DNA from: an uncultured Verrucomicrobiae bacterium | GTDB lineage: Bacteria > Verrucomicrobiota > Verrucomicrobiia > Palsa-1439 | DNA: 64,000 bases | Assembly (NCBI GenBank): GCA_963812605.1 | Contig: CAWEWF010000001.1 | Location: 448,001 to 512,000 of the forward strand | Direction: 5' to 3' | Shown here: in pieces, positions 1 through 61,747 of the stretch | Numbering within the stretch: the stretch's first letter is position 1 | How the letters are laid out: each line of letters opens with the position of its first letter | Program-made: the position numbers and the translations under genes | The notes under the pieces: model-generated | What the model was told of the DNA's origin: nothing | Databases searched by the model: none | Seen by the model: the letters and a program-made list of their open reading frames with translations, nothing else

Positions 1-1652
1 AACAGAAACGCACCGCCGAGAAAGAAAAAGTGCAGGTCGATGCGCCGCAGGCGCCCGCCCGAGCAGCCGAACACGCTGGCCAGGGAGATCGTCAGCAACG
101 CCACGAGGGCGATTCCGTATTGCCGTGGTAATTTCCGCCCTTCCAGATAGAGAAACGGCCAATCGTCGGTGGCCGGTTCCACAAGGCCGGCGCTCTGCGC
201 TTGTTGGACACCGAGATACTGGCGCAGGCCTGGCCCCGTGATGAAGGTATACCCCGGGGTCTGCTTAGTTTCGGACATCACGGGTGCCATCCCATACGCT
301 TCCGTCAGGATGGCATACATTCGCGCCTCCATGAACGGCGCGCCGAGCCCGTGCTCCACCACCACGAGGCCCTGATCCTTGAGGAGCTGCCGCACCTCGC
401 GGAAGCTTTCCACGGTAAAGACGAACGAGTCCAGTCGGACGGACGACATACTGGAGAAGAGGCGGTGTGAATCCAGCAGTCCAAACACGACCATGTCATA
501 ACGGTGGTGGGTCTTGTGGAAAAAGGACCGTGCGTCATCGACGTAGACGGTCACCCGCGGATCATCATACGGATGTTCCGGGTGACGCGTTCGGCCCAAC
601 TGGACGATCGCCGGATCGATCTCAACCGCATCCACGTGCTGGGCCCCGTGACGCAACGCCGCTGCCGTATCATTGCCCGTGCCCGCCCCGACAATCAGCA
701 CATCCCGATACGGGAAGTTGGGGATGCGGTAGGCCAGGTCGTAATGTTCCAGGTTGTGACGGAGAAATGGATAGCGGGCGACCGCCGTCGGCGAAAGATT
801 CAATGCCATCTGCAGGAAATCCTCGTCCACCGCGACGTGAAACCCGAATTCCGGGGGCAACACCTGCACCGTTTCCTGGTCAGTGCCGTTGTAGACTGAC
901 AACTGTCCCGTTGACCGCAGGATTGCCAACGGCGAGGCGGTGATCTTGTGATAGGGCGACCAAACGAACCCGCCGCCGGCCACGGTCACGTTGGTGATGG
1001 TGATCAATACGGCGACGAGGTTGGCGCACAGAAGCGCCTTTTCTCGTCGCACGAACCACAGCAAGGGTACCAGGGCCAAACCAAACCACCAGGCAGGGGC
1101 GAGTTGCAGGAATGACACAGCCGAGAACGCCACAACCCCCAGCACACTTCCGAGTATATTGAGAATGTAGCCGTTCAGCGGCGATCGTGTCGTCAGCAAG
1201 CCTACGCCGATCTTCTGCCCGAGGGGCACGAACGTGGCCGTGATCAGAAGAAAGAAGATGACGAGGGTAAACAGAAGCGGGACGGTCAGCAAGGACGCGC
1301 GATTGACGTCCGTGTAGAGGACGTCCTGCGTCAGGGTTTGCGTCTTGACGAAGAGATTGAACCCCAGGGCCACCACCACCAACAGCAATACCAGCAGCGG
1401 TTCGTACCGCACCAATTCGCGGCGCCACCGCGCCAGCATGGACCCAAGACCCAATCCCAAGAAGGAGGCGATCAGGACGAAATTCGTGAAGTAGGCGAGC
1501 ACGCGTTCATAGGAAGGCACCCAGCGGATGAACATGACTTCCATGAACAAGGCGAGGAAGCTGGCGATGAACAAGTCGGTCTTCCACCCTGGGATGTCCG
1601 CAGCGGCAGCCGGGAAAGAATCGTGCGTCGCGTGAATGGGGAGCGCTTCCAT
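1..1652 (-). CDS. Spermidine synthase-like membrane protein (TM region plus class I SAM-binding domain); runs off the left edge
   Basis: Manual translation from ATG 1652: MEALPIH...LFIASFLALFMEVMFIRW (TM-rich), later AVEIDPAIVQLGR and DDARSF...YDMVVFGLLDSH; absent from the ORF track because the stop lies outside the window. Confidence 0.75.
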   Translation of the reverse strand, partial: MEALPIHATHDSFPAAAADIPGWKTDLFIASFLALFMEVMFIRWVPSYERVLAYFTNFVLIASFLGLGLGSMLARWRRELVRYEPLLVLLLVVVALGFNLFVKTQTLTQDVLYTDVNRASLLTVPLLFTLVIFFLLITATFVPLGQKIGVGLLTTRSPLNGYILNILGSVLGVVAFSAVSFLQLAPAWWFGLALVPLLWFVRREKALLCANLVAVLITITNVTVAGGGFVWSPYHKITASPLAILRSTGQLSVYNGTDQETVQVLPPEFGFHVAVDEDFLQMALNLSPTAVARYPFLRHNLEHYDLAYRIPNFPYRDVLIVGAGTGNDTAAALRHGAQHVDAVEIDPAIVQLGRTRHPEHPYDDPRVTVYVDDARSFFHKTHHRYDMVVFGLLDSHRLFSSMSSVRLDSFVFTVESFREVRQLLKDQGLVVVEHGLGAPFMEARMYAILTEAYGMAPVMSETKQTPGYTFITGPGLRQYLGVQQAQSAGLVEPATDDWPFLYLEGRKLPRQYGIALVALLTISLASVFGCSGGRLRRIDLHFFFLGGAFL

Positions 1653-1815
1653 ATTTTATGCGAATGGGCGACACATTAATGTGGTGGGGCACCCGCGACA
1701 ACTCATTATCACATCATCCGAACAAGTTTTCGCGGGTGGACCCGATGCGAAGCGGCGGTTCACCCGCGGAAAAATTGCTTGCGTCACCTTTCGCGTCCGC
1801 CCATTCTAGCAGAGC

Positions 1816-2538
1816 ATGAAACGCGCCGACGGCCGCCGTCCCAATCAACTTCGCCCGGTAAAAATCCAGCCGCACTACGTCAAGCAGCCGGCGGGTTCCG
1901 CGCTCATCGAGATGGGCAACACGCGCGTGCTGTGTGCCGCCTCGGTCGAGGAAGGCGTGCCGCGCTGGATGCGCGAGCAAGGGGTGAAAGGCGGTTGGAT
2001 CACCGCCGAGTATTCGATGCTGCCCTACGCCACCGCGCCGCGCAAAGCGCGCGAGGTGACCCGCGGGCGTGTCGAGGGTCGCACGCAGGAAATCCAGCGG
2101 CTCGTGGGGCGCGCGTTGCGGTCGGTCACCGATATCGAGAAGCTGGGTGAGCGGACAATTTGGATTGATTGTGACGTGCTGCAAGCCGACGGGGGCACGC
2201 GCACGGCGGCGATTACGGGTGCGTACGTCGCGGTGATGCTCGCCATGCACAAGCTGGAAGGCGAAGGGGTGCTCAAAGAATGCCCCCTGAAATCCGGTGT
2301 GGCCGCCATCAGCGTCGGCATGCTTGACGGTGTGCCGCTGCTGGATTTGTGTTATGAGGAGGACTCGAAGGCGGCGGTGGACATGAATGTGGTGATGACG
2401 GACGAAGGCCATTTTGTGGAAGTCCAGGGAACAGGGGAGGACGCGCCGTTTACGCAACGGCAGATGACGACGATGCTCAAATTGGCCTGCGGGGGAATCG
2501 CCGACCTGCTGGCGATCCAGAAGAAAGTCTTGGACTAG
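1816..2538 (+). CDS. rph: Ribonuclease PH
   Basis: GWITAEYSMLP, GRTQEIQRLVGRALR, DCDVLQADGGTRTAAITG, FVEVQGTGE motifs. Confidence 0.97.
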   Translation: MKRADGRRPNQLRPVKIQPHYVKQPAGSALIEMGNTRVLCAASVEEGVPRWMREQGVKGGWITAEYSMLPYATAPRKAREVTRGRVEGRTQEIQRLVGRALRSVTDIEKLGERTIWIDCDVLQADGGTRTAAITGAYVAVMLAMHKLEGEGVLKECPLKSGVAAISVGMLDGVPLLDLCYEEDSKAAVDMNVVMTDEGHFVEVQGTGEDAPFTQRQMTTMLKLACGGIADLLAIQKKVLD

Positions 2539-2556
2539 TGATTACTTGGGAAAAGA

Positions 2557-2580
2557 GAACGGGCGAGACGCCTGTTCTAC
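2557..2580 (-). repeat. GTAG-type REP-like palindrome
   Basis: Minus strand GTAGAACAGGCGTCTCGCCCGTTC between convergent rph and trxA. Confidence 0.55.
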
Positions 2581-2924
2581 GGAAGGCCGAAAATCAGCCG
2601 TACGACGCCAGCTTCTTGTCCAGGTCCTTCTTGCCCGGTCATGCCCACCATCGTTTCCTTGACCTGGCCGCCCTGGAACAACAACAGCGTCGGGACGGCG
2701 CGAATACCAAAGCGGGTGGCAAGCTCCTGATTGTCGTCCACGTTGACCTTGGCGACCTTGATCTTGCCGAGCTTTTCCTGCGCGACTTCGTCGAGCATCG
2801 GCCCAATCATCTTGCACGGGCCGCACCAAGTCGCCCAAAAATCGACCAACACGGGTGTCGCGGCTTGGGTCACTTCCAAGTCAAAATTGGCTGTCGATAG
2901 AGTAACAATATGTTCGTTTGCCAT
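2577..2924 (-). CDS. trxA: Thioredoxin (probable +1 indel near the C-terminus)
   Basis: VDFWATWCGPC active site; removing one base near 2637 restores ...GMTGKKDLDKKLASYG*. Confidence 0.93.
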   Translation of the reverse strand: MANEHIVTLSTANFDLEVTQAATPVLVDFWATWCGPCKMIGPMLDEVAQEKLGKIKVAKVNVDDNQELATRFGIRAVPTLLLFQGGQVKETMVGMTGQEGPGQEAGVVRLIFGLP

Positions 2925-2988
2925 GGATATGCTCCAGCTTGTACCTGAGTCTTTGGATGCGCTACAAGCCTGTTTCGATTCGGTCGGT

Positions 2989-3459
2989 TTAACCGTAAAT
3001 CAGGAAGGCCAGGTAACCGGCGACCGCGAGCGATAACACCATGGCCACGAGGGCCAAAGCGCCGCCGCCTCCATCCGAGACGACGACTCTTCCCGGTGCG
3101 ACCGCGGGGGAAGCGGCGATGGGGGTGCCGGTGGTCACGGGCCCCGGATCTTTGGTCAATTTGACCGTGGGGCGCGGTGTTTCCGGCGCCGCCGGCTTGG
3201 CAGCCGTGACCTGGACCCGCGCGGTGTCTTTCTTGGGCTTGGGCGCTTCCGCGGGACGGCCCATGACGGAGGTTTCCTTCTTCGCCTCTTCTTCGGGAGA
3301 GCCCGAAGGGGGAGGCGGAGGCCGGTTCGACGGCGCGGGAGTCGGAGGGGTGATGCTGGGGGTCGCGCTGCGGCCGGTCAGGCCCGGGGGCAGATTGATG
3401 CGAACCGTATCTTTCTTCAACTCTTCTGCTGGTCTTTGTTCCGGTATCTCGTCAGCCAT
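2989..3459 (-). CDS. Pro-rich hypothetical protein with C-terminal TM anchor
   Basis: ATG 3459 preceded by GGAGG; repeated KK(D/E)T motifs; hydrophobic C-terminus. Confidence 0.75.
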   Translation of the reverse strand: MADEIPEQRPAEELKKDTVRINLPPGLTGRSATPSITPPTPAPSNRPPPPPSGSPEEEAKKETSVMGRPAEAPKPKKDTARVQVTAAKPAAPETPRPTVKLTKDPGPVTTGTPIAASPAVAPGRVVVSDGGGGALALVAMVLSLAVAGYLAFLIYG

Positions 3460-3546
3460 TGGGTCGTCCTCCGAGAATGCTGGACAAACATACGCGCCCG
3501 CCCGCAACCCTGTCAAATTGTTTCTCCCCGTCGGCCGGGGTTGTCT

Positions 3547-3575
3547 TTGACGCGTTGGCGGAGTTGGCCTAGCAT
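3547..3575 (+). promoter_or_regulatory. Sigma70-like promoter, probably leaderless, for the IDH-family gene
   Basis: TTGACG(3547)-17 nt-TAGCAT(3570)-6 nt-ATG(3582), no SD. Confidence 0.6.
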
Positions 3576-3581
3576 CGAGAC

Positions 3582-4059
3582 ATGACGCATACGGTGACTT
3601 TGATTCCGGGCGATGGCATCGGGCCGGAAATTGCCGCGGCGGTGCAGAAGGTTTTCGCGGCGGCGGGGGCGCCGGTGCAGTGGGACCTTCAGCCGCTGAA
3701 TGAAACCATCCTCAAGGAAACGAAAGGCGTGCCGACGGCGGCGGTGCTCGATTCGATCCGCGGCAATCGCGTTGCGTTAAAAGGCCCGCTCACGACGCCG
3801 ATCGGAGCTGGCTACACGAGCCTGAATTTGGTATTGCGCAAGACATTCGATTTGTATGCGAACGTACGGCCCGCAAAAACGCGTCCCGGCGTTCGGTCAC
3901 GTTACGAGAATGTCGACATCATCGTCGTCCGCGAGAATACCGAGGGCGAGTACTCGGGCCTGGAACACGAGGTGGTGCCGGGGGTGGTGGAATCGCTGAA
4001 GGTGATCACGCGCAAGGCGTCGGACCGCATCGCGCGCTATGCGTTCGAGTTGGCCCGTG
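3582..4059 (+). pseudogene. Isocitrate/isopropylmalate dehydrogenase family (NAD-IDH-like), 5' half only, truncated at a transposon end
   Basis: [53 protein letters not shown], then the reading runs into the TIR at 4068; no 3' half in the window. Confidence 0.85.
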
Positions 4060-4071
4060 GAGGCATTGGGG

Positions 4072-5028
4072 TCAACTCTGTACTCTGGACACATTTTCTT
4101 TGATCCGAGCGAGTTTCCGCCGCAGCGCCTGATCGTCCGCGCTGCGACGCTCCAACCGGCGCACTACCTGTCCGACACCGCTGCCATCCCGGTACCCCTG
4201 CTCGCGGGCGACCGTCACGCCGCGCTCGCCTCCCAGTTGGACCCGCGCCCAAATCTTGATCCGTTCATCCGTCTCCCGTTCCAACACCGCCGCCAGGCGC
4301 ACGCGACGCTCCGACTGTTGACGGCGGTGTAACCAAGCCGCCTCGTCCGCTGCCGGCTTGCGGGCCACGTGCGCTTGCACCTTGGCTAATAACCGTTCTC
4401 CGCCCAACACCAGGCCGCCGATCAGTTCGTCCCAGGGGCTCTTCACGTCCCCGTCAAACCATCGCGCGATACTCCGGTGATACTGACGACGGGCCGTCGA
4501 CGGTTCCGCGCCCCAATACCGCAACCACTGCTGGCACAACCACGCGGGCCGCTTGCGCTCCAGTCCCGCATAGACCCGATGGCTGCTCCAGCGATATGCC
4601 GCCAATGCCGCCGCCCGGTCCGCCGCGATCGGCTGGCCTTTCCGCCGTGGCCGCACCGGATTTAAATGGATGTATTCCACCAATCCCTGGGCATAGGTAT
4701 CGGCCTCCACCACCTGAGCTTTGAACCGTCCCTGGAACAGATGCCCGCTGCGCCGATGGCGGCGATTGAACCGCACCGTATATGTCACCTGCAACCACCC
4801 GACCGCCCGACTGAGGTTGGCCCGGGGCGTTTCCAATAGCAAGTGGTAGTGATTGTCCATCAGACAATAGGCGTGCAGGCTTACCCCGTAGCGTTCGACC
4901 GTCTCCGCCAACGTTTCCAGAAACCGACCCCGATCTCGACCGTCGCGATAGATGGCCTTGCGTTCGTTGCCACGCGCCATCACGTGGTACACCGCACCCG
5001 CGAACTCCACTCGAACAGGACGAGCCAT
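4072..5028 (-). CDS. IS200-like/RAYT-superfamily Y1 tyrosine transposase with C-terminal extension
   Basis: [21 protein letters not shown] (HUH), [16 protein letters not shown]; the stop codon lies inside the left TIR. Confidence 0.93.
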
Positions 5029-5035
5029 CCCACTG

Positions 5036-5065
5036 AGTCTACGTCCGACTGCGCTTCCCTGTCAA
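5036..5065 (-). promoter_or_regulatory. Transposase promoter just inside the right TIR, probably leaderless
   Basis: Minus strand TTGACA-18 nt-TAGACT-7 nt-ATG(5028). Confidence 0.6.
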
Positions 5066-5079
5066 TTGTCCAGTGTACA

Positions 5080-5140
5080 GAGTTGACCCCGAGTTGACCC
5101 CGACTCCCCCGACTCGACCCCGACTCCGACCCACGACTCC
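5080..5140 (+). repeat. Degenerating tandem copies of the element-end motif
   Basis: GAGTTGACCCC|GAGTTGACCCC|GACTCCCCC|GACTCGACCCC|GACTCCGACCC|ACGACTCC. Confidence 0.8.
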
Positions 5141-5164
5141 ACAGGTGCCCGACCCACGCGAAGA

Positions 5165-5502
5165 ACCCACCCCTTAATCCCCTCCAGGGAGGGGAATCCG
5201 CCTTCGCGAGACCGCTATGGTGGACAAGCACGCTGGATTATCGTAAAACGATATTTGTGCTGGACTTGTGGGCGGATACGGAATAAGATCGACGCGGTTC
5301 TTTCAAAAAACTGACGTGGATCTGTCGGCGTCATATTCGGCGCTTCACAGAAGCGCCGCTACATCAGAAGAGGGCGCTGAAAAACACCTGTTTCTGCGAA
5401 ACGAACCCCCCAGTTAACAGGTTGATGCGCAAGAGGAAGTAAAGGGACGCTCAGGAATTGGCACGCTGTAGCGAACGGCGGGTTGGGCCAGCCCGCCCTA
5501 CC
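5165..5502. repeat. Cluster of REP-like palindromes
   Basis: CCCACCCCTTAATCCCCTCCAGGGAGGGGA (~5166); CGGCGCTTCACAGAAGCGCCGCTACA (5338-5363); TGTTTCTGCGAAACGAACCC (5389-5408); GGCGGGTTGGGCCAGCCCGCCCTACC (5477-5502). Confidence 0.65.
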
Positions 5503-6785
5503 AGAATTGGTTCTACGCCTTTTTCGGGCAGCAGTGGAGGATGTCGTAGGGTTTGACGTTCCTTGGGGGTCGGGCCGGAGACGAGGTAAATGGCGTCGGT
5601 CAACTTTTCGACGCTGCGATGGTAATCCCAGCGGAGCATCGCGGTGTGCTGCACGACAAAGCGCGGATCGTCGTCGCGGAAACACGACACGCAACTCGGG
5701 TCGGGCAGGCCGACGAGGAATTCGTCCGTGCTGAGGTTGTGCGAGGTCGTGTTGTAGAAATCCTCGAAGAGGATGAAGGACGCGGCGAACGCGTGATCGA
5801 CATAGCTGATGGCTTGCGTCTGGCTTTCCTCGTTGCGCAGGCCGCGCGGCGCGACGGGCGTAATGCTGTAGAGATTGTCGAGGAGGTCTTCCATGATGTC
5901 GTCGAGCGAGTCATGCGACCAGTCCTTCAAGCGCTCCGAGTTCACCCCGTAGGTGAAGACCGAACCCTGGATGATCGCGCCGATGGCGATGCCGGGCCAG
6001 AGGGGCAACCGGTGCGAGGGCAGGTTGCGCGTGGGCGCGCGAAAAATTTTCGGGAACAACAGCGGCTTGATCTGCTTGTAGTTTTTCAGGTCGGGTACGT
6101 CGTCGCCGCAATAGTCGAGCAGGTTGATATGCGACTCGATCAAATCATCCATGCGGCTCGGTTCGAGCAGGTAATGATGATAGAGATGCTCGAGCAACAC
6201 CGTCTGCCCGTCCATGAGCGTCAACGCCAGGCCTTCGGGCGCGCGGGTCGCGAGTTGCGGACGCTGGTGTTTCAACAGGCTGAAGTAATAGTTGGTGAAA
6301 CTGGCCGTGTCGAGATGCGGTTCGTCGTGCAATTCCAGCGAGCTAATGATCTCTTCGAGGTCGTCATCGTCCACCCCGGCATCGTGGCTGCGGCAGCGAT
6401 AGAGACAGCGGACCTGGACGCGGCCGCGGCTGAAGATCCAGGCGCGGGTATGACCGAAATCGGCCAGGTGATCTTCGTCCTGCGGTTCGGTGCGGGTGTA
6501 AGTCATGTAGGCCAGTACGGAACCACTGCGGGAGCCGCGCTGAATGACCGGCTCCTCGATTTGTGGCCAGGAACGCTTCTCGCAGTCGAGGAGCGACTGC
6601 AGCGCGCGCTCCGGGCGCATTGCCTCGGGCGCGGGCTTTTCGAATTGGCAGGCTTCCACCTTCAGGTAGCCGCCGGTGGTCAGGCTGGCGAGGCTGACGT
6701 GCGGGGAGCCTTCATGGGTCAGCGGCAGCCACCCGTCGGGGTAACTGATCGTGTAATTCTTCTCAGGGTCACCGTACTCAGGCAT
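5451..6785 (-). CDS. Hypothetical protein, possibly DUF1444-like C-terminal region; true end probably near 5513 (indel)
   Basis: 444-aa ORF with GC-biased codon use; one-base correction near 5560 gives ...KDVKPYDILHCCPKKA*. Confidence 0.7.
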   Translation of the reverse strand: MPEYGDPEKNYTISYPDGWLPLTHEGSPHVSLASLTTGGYLKVEACQFEKPAPEAMRPERALQSLLDCEKRSWPQIEEPVIQRGSRSGSVLAYMTYTRTEPQDEDHLADFGHTRAWIFSRGRVQVRCLYRCRSHDAGVDDDDLEEIISSLELHDEPHLDTASFTNYYFSLLKHQRPQLATRAPEGLALTLMDGQTVLLEHLYHHYLLEPSRMDDLIESHINLLDYCGDDVPDLKNYKQIKPLLFPKIFRAPTRNLPSHRLPLWPGIAIGAIIQGSVFTYGVNSERLKDWSHDSLDDIMEDLLDNLYSITPVAPRGLRNEESQTQAISYVDHAFAASFILFEDFYNTTSHNLSTDEFLVGLPDPSCVSCFRDDDPRFVVQHTAMLRWDYHRSVEKLTDAIYLVSGPTPKERQTLRHPPLLPEKGVEPILVGRAGPTRRSLQRANS

Positions 6786-6975
6786 GACCAGAGTAAAGCA
6801 GCCACCTTGCCAAGCCCGCCGCGACCCCGGTCACTCGCAAAATTGGGCCTTTGGTAGGTGGGGGAAGGGCTGAGAGACAGAATTGAACGCCCTGGATCAC
6901 AGGCGTGGGAAGGGCTGCAAAGCATTGACAGCCATTCTCGTTTCAAGAGATAAAGCCTGCGTTTACGGAGCAGGT

Positions 6976-9108
6976 ATGGGTCAGCGCGCATTCATTTTTG
7001 TTATGGCCGGTCAATTATTTGTCGCCGGCCTCATGCAGGGGGCTGATGTTGCACCGACGAACGCGCCGGTAGTCCTGCCTCCCATCAAGGTCATTGGGCA
7101 CCCGGGATCCCTGACCTCCCCATCGCCTGAGAAGTCAGAAGAGCAGAAGCAGCAAATCCCCGGAGGATTTACTGTCGAGGGCAGCGACGAGATGCATCAA
7201 GGTCGCGCCTCGAATTTTGAAGATTTACTCCAAGGGGCGCCCGGTGTAACCCTGCAAAGTGAGAATGGAGTGGAGGTCTCCAAGATCTCCATTCGTGGTT
7301 CGGGAATCGACTCGGCAGACGAACCACTGGGTGTGGAATTCCTGTTGGACGGGATCAGCTTCCAGCAGGGCGACGGCGAGGTCATCCTGGAAGACTTTGA
7401 CGTTAATACCATCCAGTATGCGGAAATATATCGTGGGGCGAACGCCTTTCAATACGGCGCGTTGACGCTGGGGGGGGCGATCAACCTTGTTCCTTATACC
7501 GGTCACACGGCGCCCCCGTATGAGGTCAGGCTGGAGGCCGGCAGTTACGGCTTTCTGCTCGGCCAAGCGAGTGCGGCCGGCGTGGACGGACCGTTCGACT
7601 ATTACACATCGGTGATGGGCCGGTATCGGGACGGGTATCGCGATCACAGCCGTGAAAACACGGAGCTTTCATTCAGCGATTTCGGATACAAGATCGACGA
7701 CAACCTTGAAAACCGCTTTTACCTCACCGTGGACCATACGGACCGTAAACTACCCGGCGCCCTGACCAAGCAAGAGATGAACCAGGACCCCACGGCTGCC
7801 GACCCGGATGCGGTGGCCCAGGATTTTAGCAAAGCGTGGACCTATTTCCGGTTCGCTGACAAAATCAGTTACTCAAAAGACGGCCAGCAACTCGATGCGG
7901 GATTGTATTGGTGGCACCGGGAAATAGAGGAAAAAGGTTTTTTTGCCACCAATGACTTCCAACAGGGCATTCAAGATTTCAACGCGGACAACGTCGGCAT
8001 CAACGCGGATGCCATCAGTCACAAGGACCTGTTTGGACAGCGGAATCTCCTGACCATGGGGATGATTGCCGCCACGGAACGCGAAGCCGATCACAATTGG
8101 GCGAATGAAGGCGGCGACAAGGGACCGAGCATCGCCAGCGACGTGGAACTATCCGTCAACGCGGTACTGTACGCGCAGAACCAGCACTATTTGACCGAAA
8201 AATTTTCGGCGGTGACGGGGGTTCAATTGGCCTACGCCCTGCGCGATTTCACCGATCTCTTCAACCATACACTGAGTGGAAACGAGTCGCGGACACAGGA
8301 TTTTTACGGTGTCAACCCCAAGGCCGGCCTGATTTACGAGTTCAACGACAAAGACCAGGCGTTCCTTAACTTTAGCGGCAGTTGGCAGCCACCGTCTTTT
8401 GATAACATGGTCAATTTCGGCGACGGGCCCGGTGTCAGCCTCGAAGACACAGGGCTCGAACCGCAACGAGCGTGGACCGTAGAGACGGGCACGCGCGGCG
8501 AGCAGGGTCGTTTCGACTGGGACCTGGCTCTCTATTATTCGTGGGTCCATAACGAACTGCTCGACGTTTTCGATGCGCTGGGCAACGACCGCGGCGATGT
8601 GAATATCAACCATACCTATCACGAAGGCATTGAAGCCGGGTTGGGCATCGAGTTGCTCAAATCTATTTTCGCCAAGGAAAAGGACGGGAAGCCGGGCGAT
8701 CAGCTCAAGCTGGAACAAACCTATACCCTGAACGACTTTCATTTCCAGAACGATCCCGTCAACCATAACAATCGACTTGGCGGAATCCCGATTCATTTTT
8801 ACGAAGCGGATTTGCAGTATGAAATGCCGAATGGTTTTTACGTCGGGCCGAACGTGCAATGGAATATCACCGCTTATCCTGTTGACCAGGCGAACACGCT
8901 TAACGCCAGTCCCTATACATTGCTCGGGTTCAAGATGGGAGTCCAGCGAGCCAAGGGATTCTCGATTTTCTTCCAAGGGGTCAACCTGACCGACCAACGA
9001 TATGCCTCCTCGGTGGATCCCATAGCGAATGCAACGGGCTCGGCCCCGCAAGTGTTTCATCCGGGTGACGGACGCTCCTTCTACGGGGGTATTTCCTACG
9101 CGTGGTGA
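6976..9108 (+). CDS. TonB-dependent receptor
   Basis: Plug motifs (LLQGAPGV, ISIRGSG, EIYRGANAFQYG..LGGAINL), beta-barrel periodicity, terminal GRSFYGGISYAW; start uncertain (6883/6976/7003). Confidence 0.92.
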   Translation: MGQRAFIFVMAGQLFVAGLMQGADVAPTNAPVVLPPIKVIGHPGSLTSPSPEKSEEQKQQIPGGFTVEGSDEMHQGRASNFEDLLQGAPGVTLQSENGVEVSKISIRGSGIDSADEPLGVEFLLDGISFQQGDGEVILEDFDVNTIQYAEIYRGANAFQYGALTLGGAINLVPYTGHTAPPYEVRLEAGSYGFLLGQASAAGVDGPFDYYTSVMGRYRDGYRDHSRENTELSFSDFGYKIDDNLENRFYLTVDHTDRKLPGALTKQEMNQDPTAADPDAVAQDFSKAWTYFRFADKISYSKDGQQLDAGLYWWHREIEEKGFFATNDFQQGIQDFNADNVGINADAISHKDLFGQRNLLTMGMIAATEREADHNWANEGGDKGPSIASDVELSVNAVLYAQNQHYLTEKFSAVTGVQLAYALRDFTDLFNHTLSGNESRTQDFYGVNPKAGLIYEFNDKDQAFLNFSGSWQPPSFDNMVNFGDGPGVSLEDTGLEPQRAWTVETGTRGEQGRFDWDLALYYSWVHNELLDVFDALGNDRGDVNINHTYHEGIEAGLGIELLKSIFAKEKDGKPGDQLKLEQTYTLNDFHFQNDPVNHNNRLGGIPIHFYEADLQYEMPNGFYVGPNVQWNITAYPVDQANTLNASPYTLLGFKMGVQRAKGFSIFFQGVNLTDQRYASSVDPIANATGSAPQVFHPGDGRSFYGGISYAW

Positions 9109-9158
9109 AGGTTTTGAGGATTGATTCGGACGTTCCCTTTGCGTAGGCTGGCCGCATC

Positions 9159-9764
9159 ATGAGCAAGGTCATTCGCGGGAAAGCTTTCGTTGTGCGGGAC
9201 AATATCGACACCGATCAGATCATCCCGGCCCAGTATCTGAACCTCGTGCCCACGATTCCCGAGGAATACGAGAAACTCGGCAGCTTCGCGCTCTGCGGGC
9301 TGCCGAAAGACCAGTACCCGACCCGTTTCATTCCCGAAGGCCAGACCCGGTCGCCCTACACCATTGTCATCGGCGGGCGCAATTTCGGGTGCGGCAGTTC
9401 GCGCGAGCACGCGCCGATTGCGCTGGGGGCGGCGGGCTGCGAGGCGGTGGTGGCGGAAAGTTTTGCGCGCATTTTTTTCCGCAACAGCGTGGCGACGGGC
9501 GAGCTTTACCCGGTGGAAGCGACGGCGCGGATTTGCGAGACGGTGAAAACGGGCGACGAGGTGGAACTGGACCTGGATGGGAACACGTTGAAGATCCTCG
9601 GGACCTCGAAGGTCCTCGCGACCAAGCCGCTGGGCGAAGCGCGGCCGGTGATCGATGCGGGCGGGCTCTTCGATTTCGCGCGCAAGAGCGGGATGATCCA
9701 CGCACAGGGCAACCACTCGAAAGCGACCGAAGAGTTGGCCGCGAAAGAGCCGGCCGACGATTAA
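9159..9764 (+). CDS. leuD: 3-isopropylmalate dehydratase small subunit (LeuD/HacB type)
   Basis: DNIDTDQIIPA, GRNFGCGSSREHAP, AESFARIFFRN. Confidence 0.92.
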   Translation: MSKVIRGKAFVVRDNIDTDQIIPAQYLNLVPTIPEEYEKLGSFALCGLPKDQYPTRFIPEGQTRSPYTIVIGGRNFGCGSSREHAPIALGAAGCEAVVAESFARIFFRNSVATGELYPVEATARICETVKTGDEVELDLDGNTLKILGTSKVLATKPLGEARPVIDAGGLFDFARKSGMIHAQGNHSKATEELAAKEPADD

Positions 9765-9782
9765 GAGGAGACGCACGCCACC

Positions 9783-11591
9783 TTGCGCGGCCTTACCTTG
9801 CTTTTTCTGGGCGCCTTCCTGGCCGCCACCTCGTTGTTCGCGGCGGAAGTGAAGCTGAAGGACGGCACCGCCTATCACGATGTGAAAATCCTGGAACGTA
9901 CCGACCAGTACGTCCGGATCACCGTGCCGTACGGAGAGATGAAGCTGCCTCTCGGCAAGGTGGAAAGCATCGACGGCAAGGCGGTCGTGGAAACCGCGCC
10001 CACCAGCGACAAGGCCCAACTGGCCAATGCGATTCCGCCTCCGCCGCCCCCGTATGTACATCGTTGGACGATGGATATTTTTCTGCTGGGAATGTGGTTG
10101 GTGATGATGACATGGATCATGGCGCTGCTCTGGGTTCAGCACGATGCTCGCGGGATGCCTGAGGAAATCAGGCGCGCCAATGCCAATGTGCTGCTGGTGC
10201 CATTCCTCGGCTTCCTGAAGTACTTGTTCATGCGCCGCCGCCATCGTGGCAACGATGAGGCGCCAGCGCAGTCGCTGGAGGGGCGCGTAGCCGGGGTGGG
10301 GATCGATGAGGTCCCGAAAAAGCGCGGACTCTTCGGTGGTCGCACCAAGAACGCCAGCAACCGGGGGGCCCGAAAGCAGCGTGTCGGGATCGAGTTTCTT
10401 GACGTGGGTGGCCAGATGATCGACATCCGCCAGGATCTGCCGGAGATGACCGGTATCGAGGCAGCCCGTGAGGTGTTGGCGGATGCGATCACGGAACGCG
10501 CCAGTGACATTCACCTGGAACCGCAGGGAGACGGGTGCCGCGTGCGCTTTCGCGTCGATGGCACGCTGCAGGAACGGATGACGTTTACCAAAGTAGATGG
10601 AACGCGGGTGGTGGCGGCGCTCAAGACGCTGGCGCAGATCGACGTAGCGGAGAAGCGCAGGGCCCAGGATGGCCGATTTCGCGTCCGAGCCGGGACCGAC
10701 CTGGTTGATTTCCGCGCGGCCACCGCCAACGGTATTCACGGTGAGAAATTGGTGTTGCGCATCCTCGACCGGAGGAGCGGGGTATTGGGCCTGACGGAGC
10801 TGGGCATGCCCCCGGAAATGCTGGAGCGGTTCGATCGCGTCATTCATTCGCGCAATGGCATCATCCTGGCGACGGGTCCCACGGGGGCGGGCAAGACCTC
10901 GACGCTGTACGCGGCCTTGAGCCGGCTGGACCGGAATGCGCTGAATATCATGAGCATTGAGGATCCGGTGGAGTACGAACTGGAGGGCACGACACAGATT
11001 CCCGTGAATGTGAAGGCGGGAGTCACCTACGAGGCGGGGCTGCGCTCGATTCTGCGGCAGGATCCCAATGTGATTTTTGTGGGCGAGATGCGCGACACGG
11101 AGGCGGCCACGATCGCGATCCGCGCGGCGTTGACCGGGCACCTGGTGTTCAGTTCCCTGCATTCCAAGGACGCCGTCGGAACCGTTATTCGGTTGGAAGA
11201 GATGGGCGTGGAACGTTACCAGATTTCTTCGGCGCTGCTGATGGTCGTGGCCCAGCGGCTGGTGCGCGTGCTCTGCAAGAAATGCCGCAAGGCGTATGCC
11301 GCGACGGGGACTGAATTGAGCGAGATCGGCATCCAGGTGGAGCCGGGCCGCCGTCTTTATAGCGCGATTGGATGCGGAGCGTGTGATAATACCGGCTACC
11401 GGGGGCGAACCGGTATTTTCGAGTTGCTGGTGATGGACGAGGAACTGCGCAAGGCAGTGAACGACGGGGCGAACGAACAAGTTATGTCAGAGATCGCCTC
11501 GCGAAAGGGCCTGCGGTCCTATCGCGAGGATGGCCTCGACAAAATCCTTAACGGCATTACGTCGGTGGAAGATGTGATCCAGGCGAGTTGA
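9783..11591 (+). CDS. GspE/PilB-family secretion ATPase with N-terminal signal peptide, exported domain and TM segments
   Basis: ASDIHLEP, Walker A GPTGAGKTST, IEDPVEY, LRQDPNVIFVGEMRD, TGHLVFSSLH, CKKC..CGAC; N-terminus MRGLTLLFLGAFLAATSLFA. Confidence 0.9.
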   Translation: MRGLTLLFLGAFLAATSLFAAEVKLKDGTAYHDVKILERTDQYVRITVPYGEMKLPLGKVESIDGKAVVETAPTSDKAQLANAIPPPPPPYVHRWTMDIFLLGMWLVMMTWIMALLWVQHDARGMPEEIRRANANVLLVPFLGFLKYLFMRRRHRGNDEAPAQSLEGRVAGVGIDEVPKKRGLFGGRTKNASNRGARKQRVGIEFLDVGGQMIDIRQDLPEMTGIEAAREVLADAITERASDIHLEPQGDGCRVRFRVDGTLQERMTFTKVDGTRVVAALKTLAQIDVAEKRRAQDGRFRVRAGTDLVDFRAATANGIHGEKLVLRILDRRSGVLGLTELGMPPEMLERFDRVIHSRNGIILATGPTGAGKTSTLYAALSRLDRNALNIMSIEDPVEYELEGTTQIPVNVKAGVTYEAGLRSILRQDPNVIFVGEMRDTEAATIAIRAALTGHLVFSSLHSKDAVGTVIRLEEMGVERYQISSALLMVVAQRLVRVLCKKCRKAYAATGTELSEIGIQVEPGRRLYSAIGCGACDNTGYRGRTGIFELLVMDEELRKAVNDGANEQVMSEIASRKGLRSYREDGLDKILNGITSVEDVIQAS

Positions 11592-12160
11592 CCATGGTCG
11601 AAGTCATCCTGAGCATTCTGGCAATTGTGCTGATCCTGTCCCTGGCGTGGGGCGGGGCGTGGTTCGGCGTATTTTATGAACTGTCGAGTTCGTTATTGCT
11701 GTTTTTCGCGATGATGGTGGCCCTGCGCTATTGGTATGAGTTGGCGAGCTGGATCGAGTCGGTGATGCCGGGGGCGGGCAGCTACGGCGCGTTCGGCGCG
11801 TACTGGGCGCTGTTTTTGGTGGGGTGCGCGCCGCTGATTGTCGTGCTCAAACGGGTCACGGATGAGGTGGCGCCGCGTTACCCGAGAACCATCGATAAGA
11901 CGTTGGGCTTTGTCTTTGGTTTTATCTCCGCCGCGATCCTGGTTTGCTGCGTGATGACCAGTCTTTCCGTCGTGGTTCCAACCGTTTGGGAACCATATAA
12001 CCACGAGGCCTTGCTGTTGCCACTCGACCAATTCCCGATTGCGGTCTACGAGTACGTTGAGGAGCAGGTGCTCGGCATTCCGAAGACCGACCCGGGTCAT
12101 ACGCGGTTTCCAACATTCGAAAAGGCGGACGCAAACAAGTTCCAGGACTACTGGCAATAA
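11588..12160 (+). CDS. CvpA-like (colicin V production family) membrane protein
   Basis: About four TM helices, IDKTLGFVFGFISA motif; overlaps the ATPase stop. Confidence 0.7.
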   Translation: MTMVEVILSILAIVLILSLAWGGAWFGVFYELSSSLLLFFAMMVALRYWYELASWIESVMPGAGSYGAFGAYWALFLVGCAPLIVVLKRVTDEVAPRYPRTIDKTLGFVFGFISAAILVCCVMTSLSVVVPTVWEPYNHEALLLPLDQFPIAVYEYVEEQVLGIPKTDPGHTRFPTFEKADANKFQDYWQ

Positions 12161-61094: not shown

Positions 61095-61747
61095 GGTAGG
61101 GACGGCTGTCACAGCCGTCCGCTGGCATGAATGAAACAATTTCGGACGGCTCGGAGAGCCGTCCCTACCGCGAATTTGCGTAGCCGGTAGAATGCGGATT
61201 TGCTACTGTCACACGTCATGACGCTCGCCAGGCGCAAGACGCTCCCTCATGCACTGCCGCCACACGTTGAACCTAACGACACCATTTTCTTCCTGACGAT
61301 CTGTTGTGAACCTCGCGGCAAGAATCATCTTTGCAATCCGCACAGTGCTTCTGCGCTCTTTGACGCCACCGCTATTTATCATGAGCGAGGTAAATGGTGG
61401 ATGTATTTTTTGCTTTTGATGCCGGATCATCTACACGCACTCGTCTCATTCCCGGGCGACAACACAATGCCGAAGGTGGTGGCCGCATGGAAGAGGCACG
61501 CGGCGCGTACTCAACGCATACTCTGGCAACGAGGATTCTTCGATCATCGGTTGCGCCATGACGAAAGCCTGCGCAACAAAGAAGATTACATTCGGCAAAA
61601 CCCGGTGCGGGCGGGATTGATCGGGCAAGGCGAGAGGTGGTTGTATGTATGGCAGCCATTGTCGCACGATTGATAAGAAACAGGCGTCCCGTGACTGTTC
61701 GATATAGTTCTGTTGATCAGCGGACGGCTCGGAGAGCCGTCCCTACC
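61095..61747. repeat. GTAG REPs flanking a RAYT gene (REPtron-like locus)
   Basis: GGTAGGGACGGCTGTCACAGCCGTCCG (61095-61121) is inverted relative to CGGACGGCTCGGAGAGCCGTCCCTACC (61143-61169), which recurs identically at 61721-61747. Confidence 0.88.
61218..61673 (+). CDS. REP-associated tyrosine transposase (RAYT/TnpA-REP)
   Basis: FFLTIC, LMPDHLH (HUH), WQRGFFDHRLR, YIRQNPVRAGL. Confidence 0.92.
   Translation: MTLARRKTLPHALPPHVEPNDTIFFLTICCEPRGKNHLCNPHSASALFDATAIYHERGKWWMYFLLLMPDHLHALVSFPGDNTMPKVVAAWKRHAARTQRILWQRGFFDHRLRHDESLRNKEDYIRQNPVRAGLIGQGERWLYVWQPLSHD

Follow-up and report, generated by a model that had tools for sequence, protein, structure and literature searches.

A TIRtron carrying a Y1 transposase gene at a truncated isocitrate dehydrogenase gene in an uncultured Verrucomicrobiae bacterium

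Organization of the locus

The DNA analyzed here, called the window throughout, is a stretch of 64,000 nt from the genome of an uncultured Verrucomicrobiae bacterium (contig CAWEWF010000001.1, positions 448,001 to 512,000; G000:C1:448001-512000 in our numbering). The genome amounts to 4.17 Mb in 15 contigs, its nearest public relatives are metagenome-assembled genomes of Verrucomicrobiia, and the same-genus set that we searched comprised 17 genomes. Near its left end the window holds a HUH/Y1 transposase gene between terminal inverted repeats, directly adjoining the remnant of idh, a gene for an NAD-type isocitrate dehydrogenase. The element belongs to the TIRtrons, whose proteins are named TIRYTs. 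The features of the locus are as follows.

3582..4059, plus strand: 5' fragment of the NAD-type isocitrate dehydrogenase gene (idh), codons 1-159 of 332
4047..4056, plus strand: native idh 10-mer GAGTTGGCCC, in the orientation of the far (right) arm
4062..4067: GGCATT, element sequence outside the core repeat (the origin of 4060-4061 is uncertain)
4068-4091: inverted repeat arm on the 3' side of the gene, holding the stop codon
4072..5028, minus strand: TIRYT gene, 318 amino acids, with an N-terminal HUH/Y1 part and an all-helical C-terminal domain
5065..5036, minus strand: promoter-like TTGACA-18 nt-TAGACT inside the element, 10 of 12 positions matching
5067-5090: inverted repeat arm on the 5' side of the gene, from repeat-pair detection
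5091..5140: tandem array outside the right arm, an exact 11-nt tip copy (5091-5101) followed by degenerate copies

A first reading of the window, made without database searches (the sequence-only reading), had described a transposase gene bracketed by 24-nt inverted repeats, with its stop codon in one arm and its -35 hexamer abutting the other. All of this was confirmed. The arms at 4068-4091 and 5067-5090 were complementary at 23 of 24 positions (96%), the single open reading frame between them, 4072..5028 on the minus strand, encoded 318 amino acids, its stop codon (4072-4074) sat within the left arm, and the -35 hexamer ended 1 base from the right arm. When 3900-5300 was scanned for promoters, the minus-strand site at 5065..5036 was the only one obtained, against a mean of 0.2 in 50 shuffled sequences; a terminator scan of the same range found none, and Rfam gave no match on 3400-5800 at E up to 0.1. 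The GGCATT outside the left arm was common to a solo repeat copy at C1:431203 of the same genome and to the end of the closest relative's element, and the alignment of a metagenome contig (run X2, described below) to the element also began at 4062. On the other side, the array outside the right arm ran to approximately 5140, with a matching pattern in relatives.

The genome contained one full copy of the element only. Ten sites lay within 5 mismatches of the 24-mer repeat, and four repeat types could be distinguished, with about 10, 22, 4, and 2 copies, which makes them moderately abundant families. Many of these copies were solo ends with 10-48 nt of the interior still attached. The genome also held two paralogues (54 and 39% amino acid identity), each with its own co-varying repeats and an unchanged tip. 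The repeat of the paralogue on contig C9, GGGGTCAGGTCTCAACATCAGACAA, occurred in approximately 22 copies within 4 mismatches, and some of these were paired about 1-1.4 kb apart with their tips facing, that is, end-out relative to the intervening DNA. To the right of the element, the intergenic region 5150-5510 was a mosaic of small dispersed repeats, whose matches in the genome, their own place included, numbered 6 (5150-5210), 14 (5325-5372), 52 (5366-5420), and 7 (5468-5508); these segments had many further matches across the genus and belonged to no Rfam family.

Truncation of idh and synteny with relatives

The idh reading frame runs on into the element and stops at 4103. Residues 4-160 covered positions 1-176 of the 348 positions of the Pfam Iso_dh profile, and the frame covered positions 3-160 of the 334 of TIGR00175. 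Orthologues in two of the 17 same-genus genomes (G004 and G006; loci L031 and L032) were intact open reading frames of 332 amino acids, 92% identical over the 159 residues. DNA homology to both orthologues stopped at 4057-4059, where the orthologues go on with codon 160, and synteny was regained only at window position 5239 (G006) or 5514 (G004). Thus, 1,366 nt of G006 or 2,120 nt of G004 were replaced in the window by 1,181 or 1,456 nt, and what is missing at the locus is the 3' half of idh together with 0.8-1.6 kb of downstream DNA. The remainder of the genome, a 90% complete assembly, had no Iso_dh match over profile positions 176-348 except at three paralogous loci.

These results changed the picture of the insertion. 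The sequence-only reading had placed the 10-mer GAGTTGGCCC in the last codons of idh and had seen the element as inserted beside an intact gene. Instead, idh stops at codon 159 of 332, the 10-mer falls midway along the native gene, and the flanks of the element are not contiguous in the relatives. A comparison with intact idh alleles had been proposed as a check; the orthologues pass the break, and the 10-mer, found in both, is native idh sequence that ends 1-3 nt short of the break. The observation that no target duplication is visible was borne out. Since the relatives do not have the two flanks side by side, a simple insertion does not describe the locus, and a target duplication is not to be expected.

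The idh upstream of the element and a gene of 430 amino acids downstream of it formed one syntenic neighborhood in both G004 and G006, which argues against a chimeric join in the assembly. The junctions were compared with contigs of four soil-metagenome runs of one study. Positions 4057-4062 were bridged by no contig of the four runs, the one point in favor of a chimera at the junction of idh with the element. The right junction was bridged in two runs, by contigs covering 5049-5289 (0 differences) and 5091-5241, which may stem from the window's own source sample, and the contig that holds the window is 691 kb long. We consider an assembly chimera extremely improbable.

The region downstream of idh differed between G004 and G006, and neither had an element there. 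Two further observations concern the surroundings and the gene family. An open reading frame of 741 amino acids at 6883-9108, outer-membrane receptor-like by eye, lies inside about 2.2 kb that G004 and G006 lack in regions where synteny otherwise holds. Outside the window, at G000:C14:165511-167424, an NADP-type Iso_dh gene is split into at least 3 pieces in different reading frames, and its last approximately 45 codons are present again about 700 nt downstream; the gene may have decayed to a pseudogene, or assembly indels may have produced the pieces.

Properties of the TIRYT protein

The protein matched Pfam Y1_Tnp with an E value of 1.5e-15 (57.8 bits). In an alignment of 29 sequences, namely the window protein and 28 relatives, all 29 matched Y1_Tnp and seven residues were invariant: His60, His62, Tyr119, Asn123, Pro124, Trp147, and Ser149. 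They fall in three motifs, H60-Y-H62 (the HUH motif), Y119...N123-P124 (the Y---NP signature), and W147-S148-S149. In the C-terminal region of the 29 aligned proteins, HTH_23 was matched in 10, Bac_DnaA_C in 8, and HTH_28 in 7.

A search of solved structures with the single sequence gave no match at E up to 1, and a profile of the relatives was needed. This profile matched Escherichia coli TnpA_REP (4er8) with an E value of 0.0034. The AlphaFold model of the protein had a pLDDT of 92.6, and its residues 226-314 were all-helical. The best fold match of the model was again TnpA_REP (4er8_A; E 4.8e-6, TM-score 0.72, normalized to target length), followed by the transposases of ISDra2 and IS608 (ranks 2-27), which have the HUH/Y1 fold.

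Another Y1_Tnp match in the window, at 61353-61592 on the plus strand, was weak (E 0.0011; 24.2 bits with same-frame neighbors included) and lay inside an open frame of 160 amino acids.

Repeat architecture in relatives and class assignment

One hundred loci encoding relatives of the protein were fetched, of which 5 had flanks too short to use and 95 were evaluated. A repeat pair with a GGG(A/T)(C/G)(A/G) tip was found in 73 of the 95, or 69 distinct loci after four that had been fetched twice were dropped. These loci span Verrucomicrobia, Desulfobacterota, Nitrospirota, Proteobacteria, candidate-phyla bacteria, and others. The consensus of the tip was four A/T-rich bases, GGGGTCA, G or A, and GTCT. 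The inner half of the repeat varied between elements and co-varied between the two arms of one element. The stop codon lay within the downstream repeat at 54 of the 69 loci, and in 26 of those 54 it was a TGA within 5 nt of the repeat tip, at the position of TGACCCC; the upstream repeat ended a median of 31 nt from the start codon. Folded with RNA parameters only, the arms formed no better structures than shuffled sequences (median z 0.08, with 0 of 69 below -2; z 0.86 for the window arm).

One of these loci, from Aminicenantes (L076), differed in having a head-to-head repeat doublet on each side of its TIRYT gene (2362-2421 and 3437-3496), and the doublets could form a long hairpin resembling a REPIN.

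The sequence-only reading had proposed a poorly characterized class of Y1/HUH transposases bracketed by terminal inverted repeats and lacking the subterminal hairpins of IS200/IS605, and this description held. The class, however, is not new. RAYT-like genes with long flanking inverted repeats were named TIRtrons, and their proteins TIRYTs, by Di Nocera, De Gregorio and Rocco (2013; PMC3733652), and most TIRYTs were equated with subclass 2.1 of TnpA_REP by Quentin et al. (2018; PMC6006769); portions of both papers served as the source for what is attributed to them here. The 2013 paper describes a GGGGWSAS motif in some but not all TIRYT repeats, repeats that in some cases overlap the 3' end of the gene, and moderately abundant repeat families with solo, paired, or clustered copies. 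According to the 2018 paper, the proteins of subclass 2.1 are long, with C-terminal domains resembling Bac_DnaA_C, HTH_23, or HTH_28; their genes lack nearby REP hairpins, are low in copy number and diverged within a genome, and were present in 14.9% of the strains surveyed.

The element of the window shares with the TIRtrons, as described in those portions, a RAYT-like Y1 gene, long terminal inverted repeats unrelated to REPs, and a repeat that overlaps the 3' end of the gene, and its genome likewise holds solo and clustered repeat copies in moderate abundance. Its tip GGGGTCAA fits the published motif at 7 of 8 positions, the last base being A instead of C or G, and the repeat of a paralogue, GGGGTCAG, fits at 8 of 8; in the relatives the eighth position was G in 60% and A in 35%. 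The likeness to subclass 2.1, judged from the features described in the portions of PMC6006769 used here, lies in the long Y1 protein, the Y---NP signature, the serine motif after the catalytic tyrosine, the lack of REP hairpins nearby, and the few, diverged copies; the helix-turn-helix extension of that subclass is visible in the window protein only through its aligned relatives. The element is a member of the TIRtron/TIRYT class and probably of TnpA_REP subclass 2.1. Two features set it apart from the TIRtrons of the 2013 paper: it adjoins a truncated conserved gene, and short tandem duplications of the tip lie outside its end, of which no mention was met in the portions of PMC3733652 used.

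Two other known systems were compared and rejected. E. coli TnpA_REP, a RAYT, with its REPtron (4er8) is the best structural match and also has its gene between inverted cognate repeats. RAYT repeats, however, are GTAG-tagged hairpins in hundreds of copies, whereas the repeats of the window's genome do not fold and number 2-22 copies per type; furthermore, the E. coli protein has 165 residues and no helix-turn-helix domain, and the window protein scored 59.7 bits with NCBIfam REP_Tyr_transpos, below the cut-off of 80. The transposases of IS200/IS605 (IS608 and ISDra2) share the HUH/Y1 fold and a single-strand cut-and-rejoin chemistry that the window protein may have in common with them. In those elements the subterminal hairpins lie on one strand in direct orientation, the targets are short tetra- or pentanucleotides, and terminal inverted repeats are lacking. 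The window element has terminal inverted repeats, its arms have no hairpins, and the score with transpos_IS200 was 17.5 bits, also below the cut-off (55).

The tip-like 10-mer in idh and the choice of target

The 10-mer GAGTTGGCCC at 4047-4056 was identical to the arm tip at 9 of 10 positions, as the sequence-only reading had noticed. The latter had also proposed that the 10-mer forms a hairpin with 4069-4078. The two segments did pair in the minimum-energy DNA fold, but the hairpin was weak (-7.9 kcal/mol, z -1.07), and its energy was unexceptional, being equalled by 27 of 200 shuffled sequences. From this pairing, and by analogy with the DNA-DNA recognition of IS608, it had been suggested that the element chooses, or recombines at, host sites complementary to its own repeat, and the flanks of other insertions had been named as the place where the suggestion could fail. 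We searched the 30-40 nt beyond each end of the 68 other distinct elements for the terminal 10-mer, allowing 1 mismatch. In the hairpin orientation it was found at 0 of the 136 ends, and also at 0 of 129-131 positions in each set of control windows 60-300 nt further out. In metagenome contigs, an exact 36-nt search found nothing, and a search with the 24-nt repeat motif found 14 loci; of the 15 distinct ends of the element's own repeat type on these 14 contigs, 0 had the complementary 10-mer. Since the 10-mer was absent from 136 and 15 ends and the hairpin energy was unexceptional, pairing of the target with the repeat does not characterize the class. The paired 9/10 match at idh speaks for such a choice of target at this one locus, which is moreover not a simple insertion; it would seem very improbable that the element selects its sites in this way.

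In the 4.17-Mb genome, 10-mers within 1 mismatch of the tip numbered 328, or 3.9e-5 per position and strand, and the chance of finding one in two 30-nt flanks, in one orientation, was approximately 0.002 before allowing for the post hoc choice of the feature. The resemblance of GAGTTGGCCC to the tip is most likely a coincidence that reflects no general target rule.

In the direct orientation the result was different. Tip copies were present just outside 8 of the 136 ends with 30-nt flanks and 13 of 136 with 40-nt flanks, compared with 3 in the controls 60 nt further out and 0 in those at 120-300 nt. At the metagenome ends, GGGGTCA was present within 40 nt outside the end in 6 of 15, compared with 0 of 13-14 controls. 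By inspection, these were short stretches duplicated in tandem, made up of 4-15 nt of the tip and 4-9 flanking bases, and the array at the right end of the window's element is of the same type. Candidate causes are repeated nicking and rejoining at the tip, slippage, and re-insertion beside leftover tips.

Mobility of related elements and a possible second joint in idh

Several observations suggest that related elements move. Up to 10 matches were found per relative genome, many of them cut by contig ends, and four segments of 772 nt in G001 were about 99% identical. Elements occupied different loci in different genomes. The closest relative of the window's element (78% nucleotide identity over 1,030 nt) was in G006 at a different locus; its flanks mapped to contig C14 of the window's genome, across a non-homologous stretch of 2.8 kb. 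The elements of G013, G003, and G001 mapped to C4:75902-75962 of the window's genome, with extra DNA on both sides.

Rearranged DNA was seen around two of the relatives. At L123 (G003:C34), a TIRtron and approximately 1.3 kb of other DNA lie between the copies of a 162-bp direct duplication (1233-1394 and 3723-3884; 94% identical), each derived from the 3' end of a neighboring gene. In G013 this intergenic region also contains a TIRtron, placed elsewhere and oppositely oriented, and the window's genome has only about 12 bp there. At L120 (G001:C25), a 5.8-kb inverted duplication (1-5775 and 5906-11687; 97.5% identical) contains pieces of a TIRYT gene.

A reading in which the TIRYT is domesticated and immobile has to be weighed against this mobility. 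The gene would have resided for long in a variable intergenic region, idh would have been cut by an unrelated host deletion, and the mimic of the tip would again be coincidental. The difference between G004 and G006 downstream of idh fits this reading, as does the report, in the portions of PMC6006769 used, that class 2 Y1 genes are low in copy number and of low identity within a genome, which is also the case in the window's genome. However, one end of the deletion is the boundary of the element itself, relatives hold many copies, some of them near-identical, and the closest relative is found at a different locus. We regard domestication with an unrelated deletion as unlikely.

The boundary may also have been used a second time, and this too would count against an unrelated deletion. 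A contig of 674 nt from run X2 matched the element at 4062-4726 with 4 differences, and the 9 letters that precede the match equal window positions 3937-3945, inside idh, where 0.001 such matches were expected by chance. It appears, from these letters, that a related population joins the same element boundary approximately 116 nt deeper in idh. This hints at deletions anchored at the element end, since an active end would be expected to leave such a pattern.

Interpretation of the idh break

We consider it probable that 4062-5090, with the tip array to approximately 5140, is a TIRtron with one TIRYT gene, its own predicted promoter, and 24-nt repeats starting with GGGGTCA, that idh was destroyed either by an insertion and deletion associated with the element or by a deletion anchored at its end, and that the 10-mer is coincidental. 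The end of the element on the 3' side of the gene would have been joined to idh at codon 159, with loss of the 3' half of idh and of downstream DNA. In the mechanism that we propose, the RAYT-like HUH/Y1 N-terminal part would cut and rejoin single-stranded DNA, the helix-turn-helix domain would bind the outer repeat module conserved in the family (GGGGTCA, G or A, GTCT), and the lineage-variable inner half would give each paralogue its own ends. The Y1 domain may nick and rejoin a single strand, a few bases beyond the GGGG tip, and the symmetry of the ends would make either strand usable. The expected outcomes would be infrequent moves of the element as a whole, dispersed solo tips, short tandem tip duplications, and rearrangements anchored at the boundary.

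The following points weigh against this interpretation. Our statements on where the nick falls, which strand serves, and what the helix-turn-helix domain does are inferred, and our literature search found no mechanistic or biochemical study of a TIRYT. The C-terminal 192 residues of the window protein itself had no Pfam helix-turn-helix match at E up to 10, and the match of profile positions 191-298 to DnaA chains was weak (E 0.006). The single full copy, with paralogues only 39-55% identical, would also fit a domesticated, rarely mobile gene. A clean empty site was sought among the relatives and none was found, so that the insertion is not directly seen. The junction of idh with the element was bridged by no contig of the four runs, and this uncovered part is uninformative; the second joint in idh rests on 9 letters. 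Finally, GAGTTGGCCC lies 1-3 nt from the break, and at a pre-specified chance of approximately 0.002 its coincidence is not secure.

This last point bears on a more specific explanation, in which the 10-mer was used as a pseudo-end. The idh 10-mer, with the G that follows it, would have been taken for a right end and cut just after, and the 3' end so produced would have been joined to the true left boundary, as in an end-to-end joint of Y1 enzymes, with deletion in one step of the 3' half of idh and of the DNA between idh and a resident element. The mimic is oriented like the right arm, idh homology stops 1-3 nt after it, such a 10-mer has only the small chance given above of occurring in two flanks, one event would account for both the truncation and the mimic, and the possible second joint of idh in run X2 is to the same boundary (4062). 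However, this is a single case recognized post hoc, and at the X2 joint the idh sequence was poorly tip-like by eye, which indicates that boundary-anchored deletions need no mimic. In addition, the symmetry of the repeats places the natural boundary approximately 6 nt outside the tip, not 1-3 nt, and neither relative with an intact idh has an element downstream of it. The use of a pseudo-end seems to us a minor possibility.

Significance of the locus

The analysis gives no new kind of target choice at the window's locus. The locus is a natural case of a TIRtron boundary that coincides with a destroyed conserved gene, and the comparison set adds a conserved outer repeat module, the stop codon within the repeat (54 of 69), and recurrent tandem tip duplication. 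Together they supply concrete substrates for the cleavage and binding assays called for by the 2013 authors, in the portions of PMC3733652 used here. What remains of interest is the damage to idh anchored at the element boundary, the possible pseudo-end, and the signature of tip duplication. It is a tentative and rather unlikely proposal that the idh break records the chemistry of the enzyme itself, the mimic of the right tip having been cut as a pseudo-end and joined to the GGCATT-GGGG boundary with deletion of the intervening DNA. If it were true, the idh joints and the tandem tip duplications would be the first natural footprints of the cut-and-rejoin sites of a TIRYT, and TIRtrons would actively erode the genes next to them.

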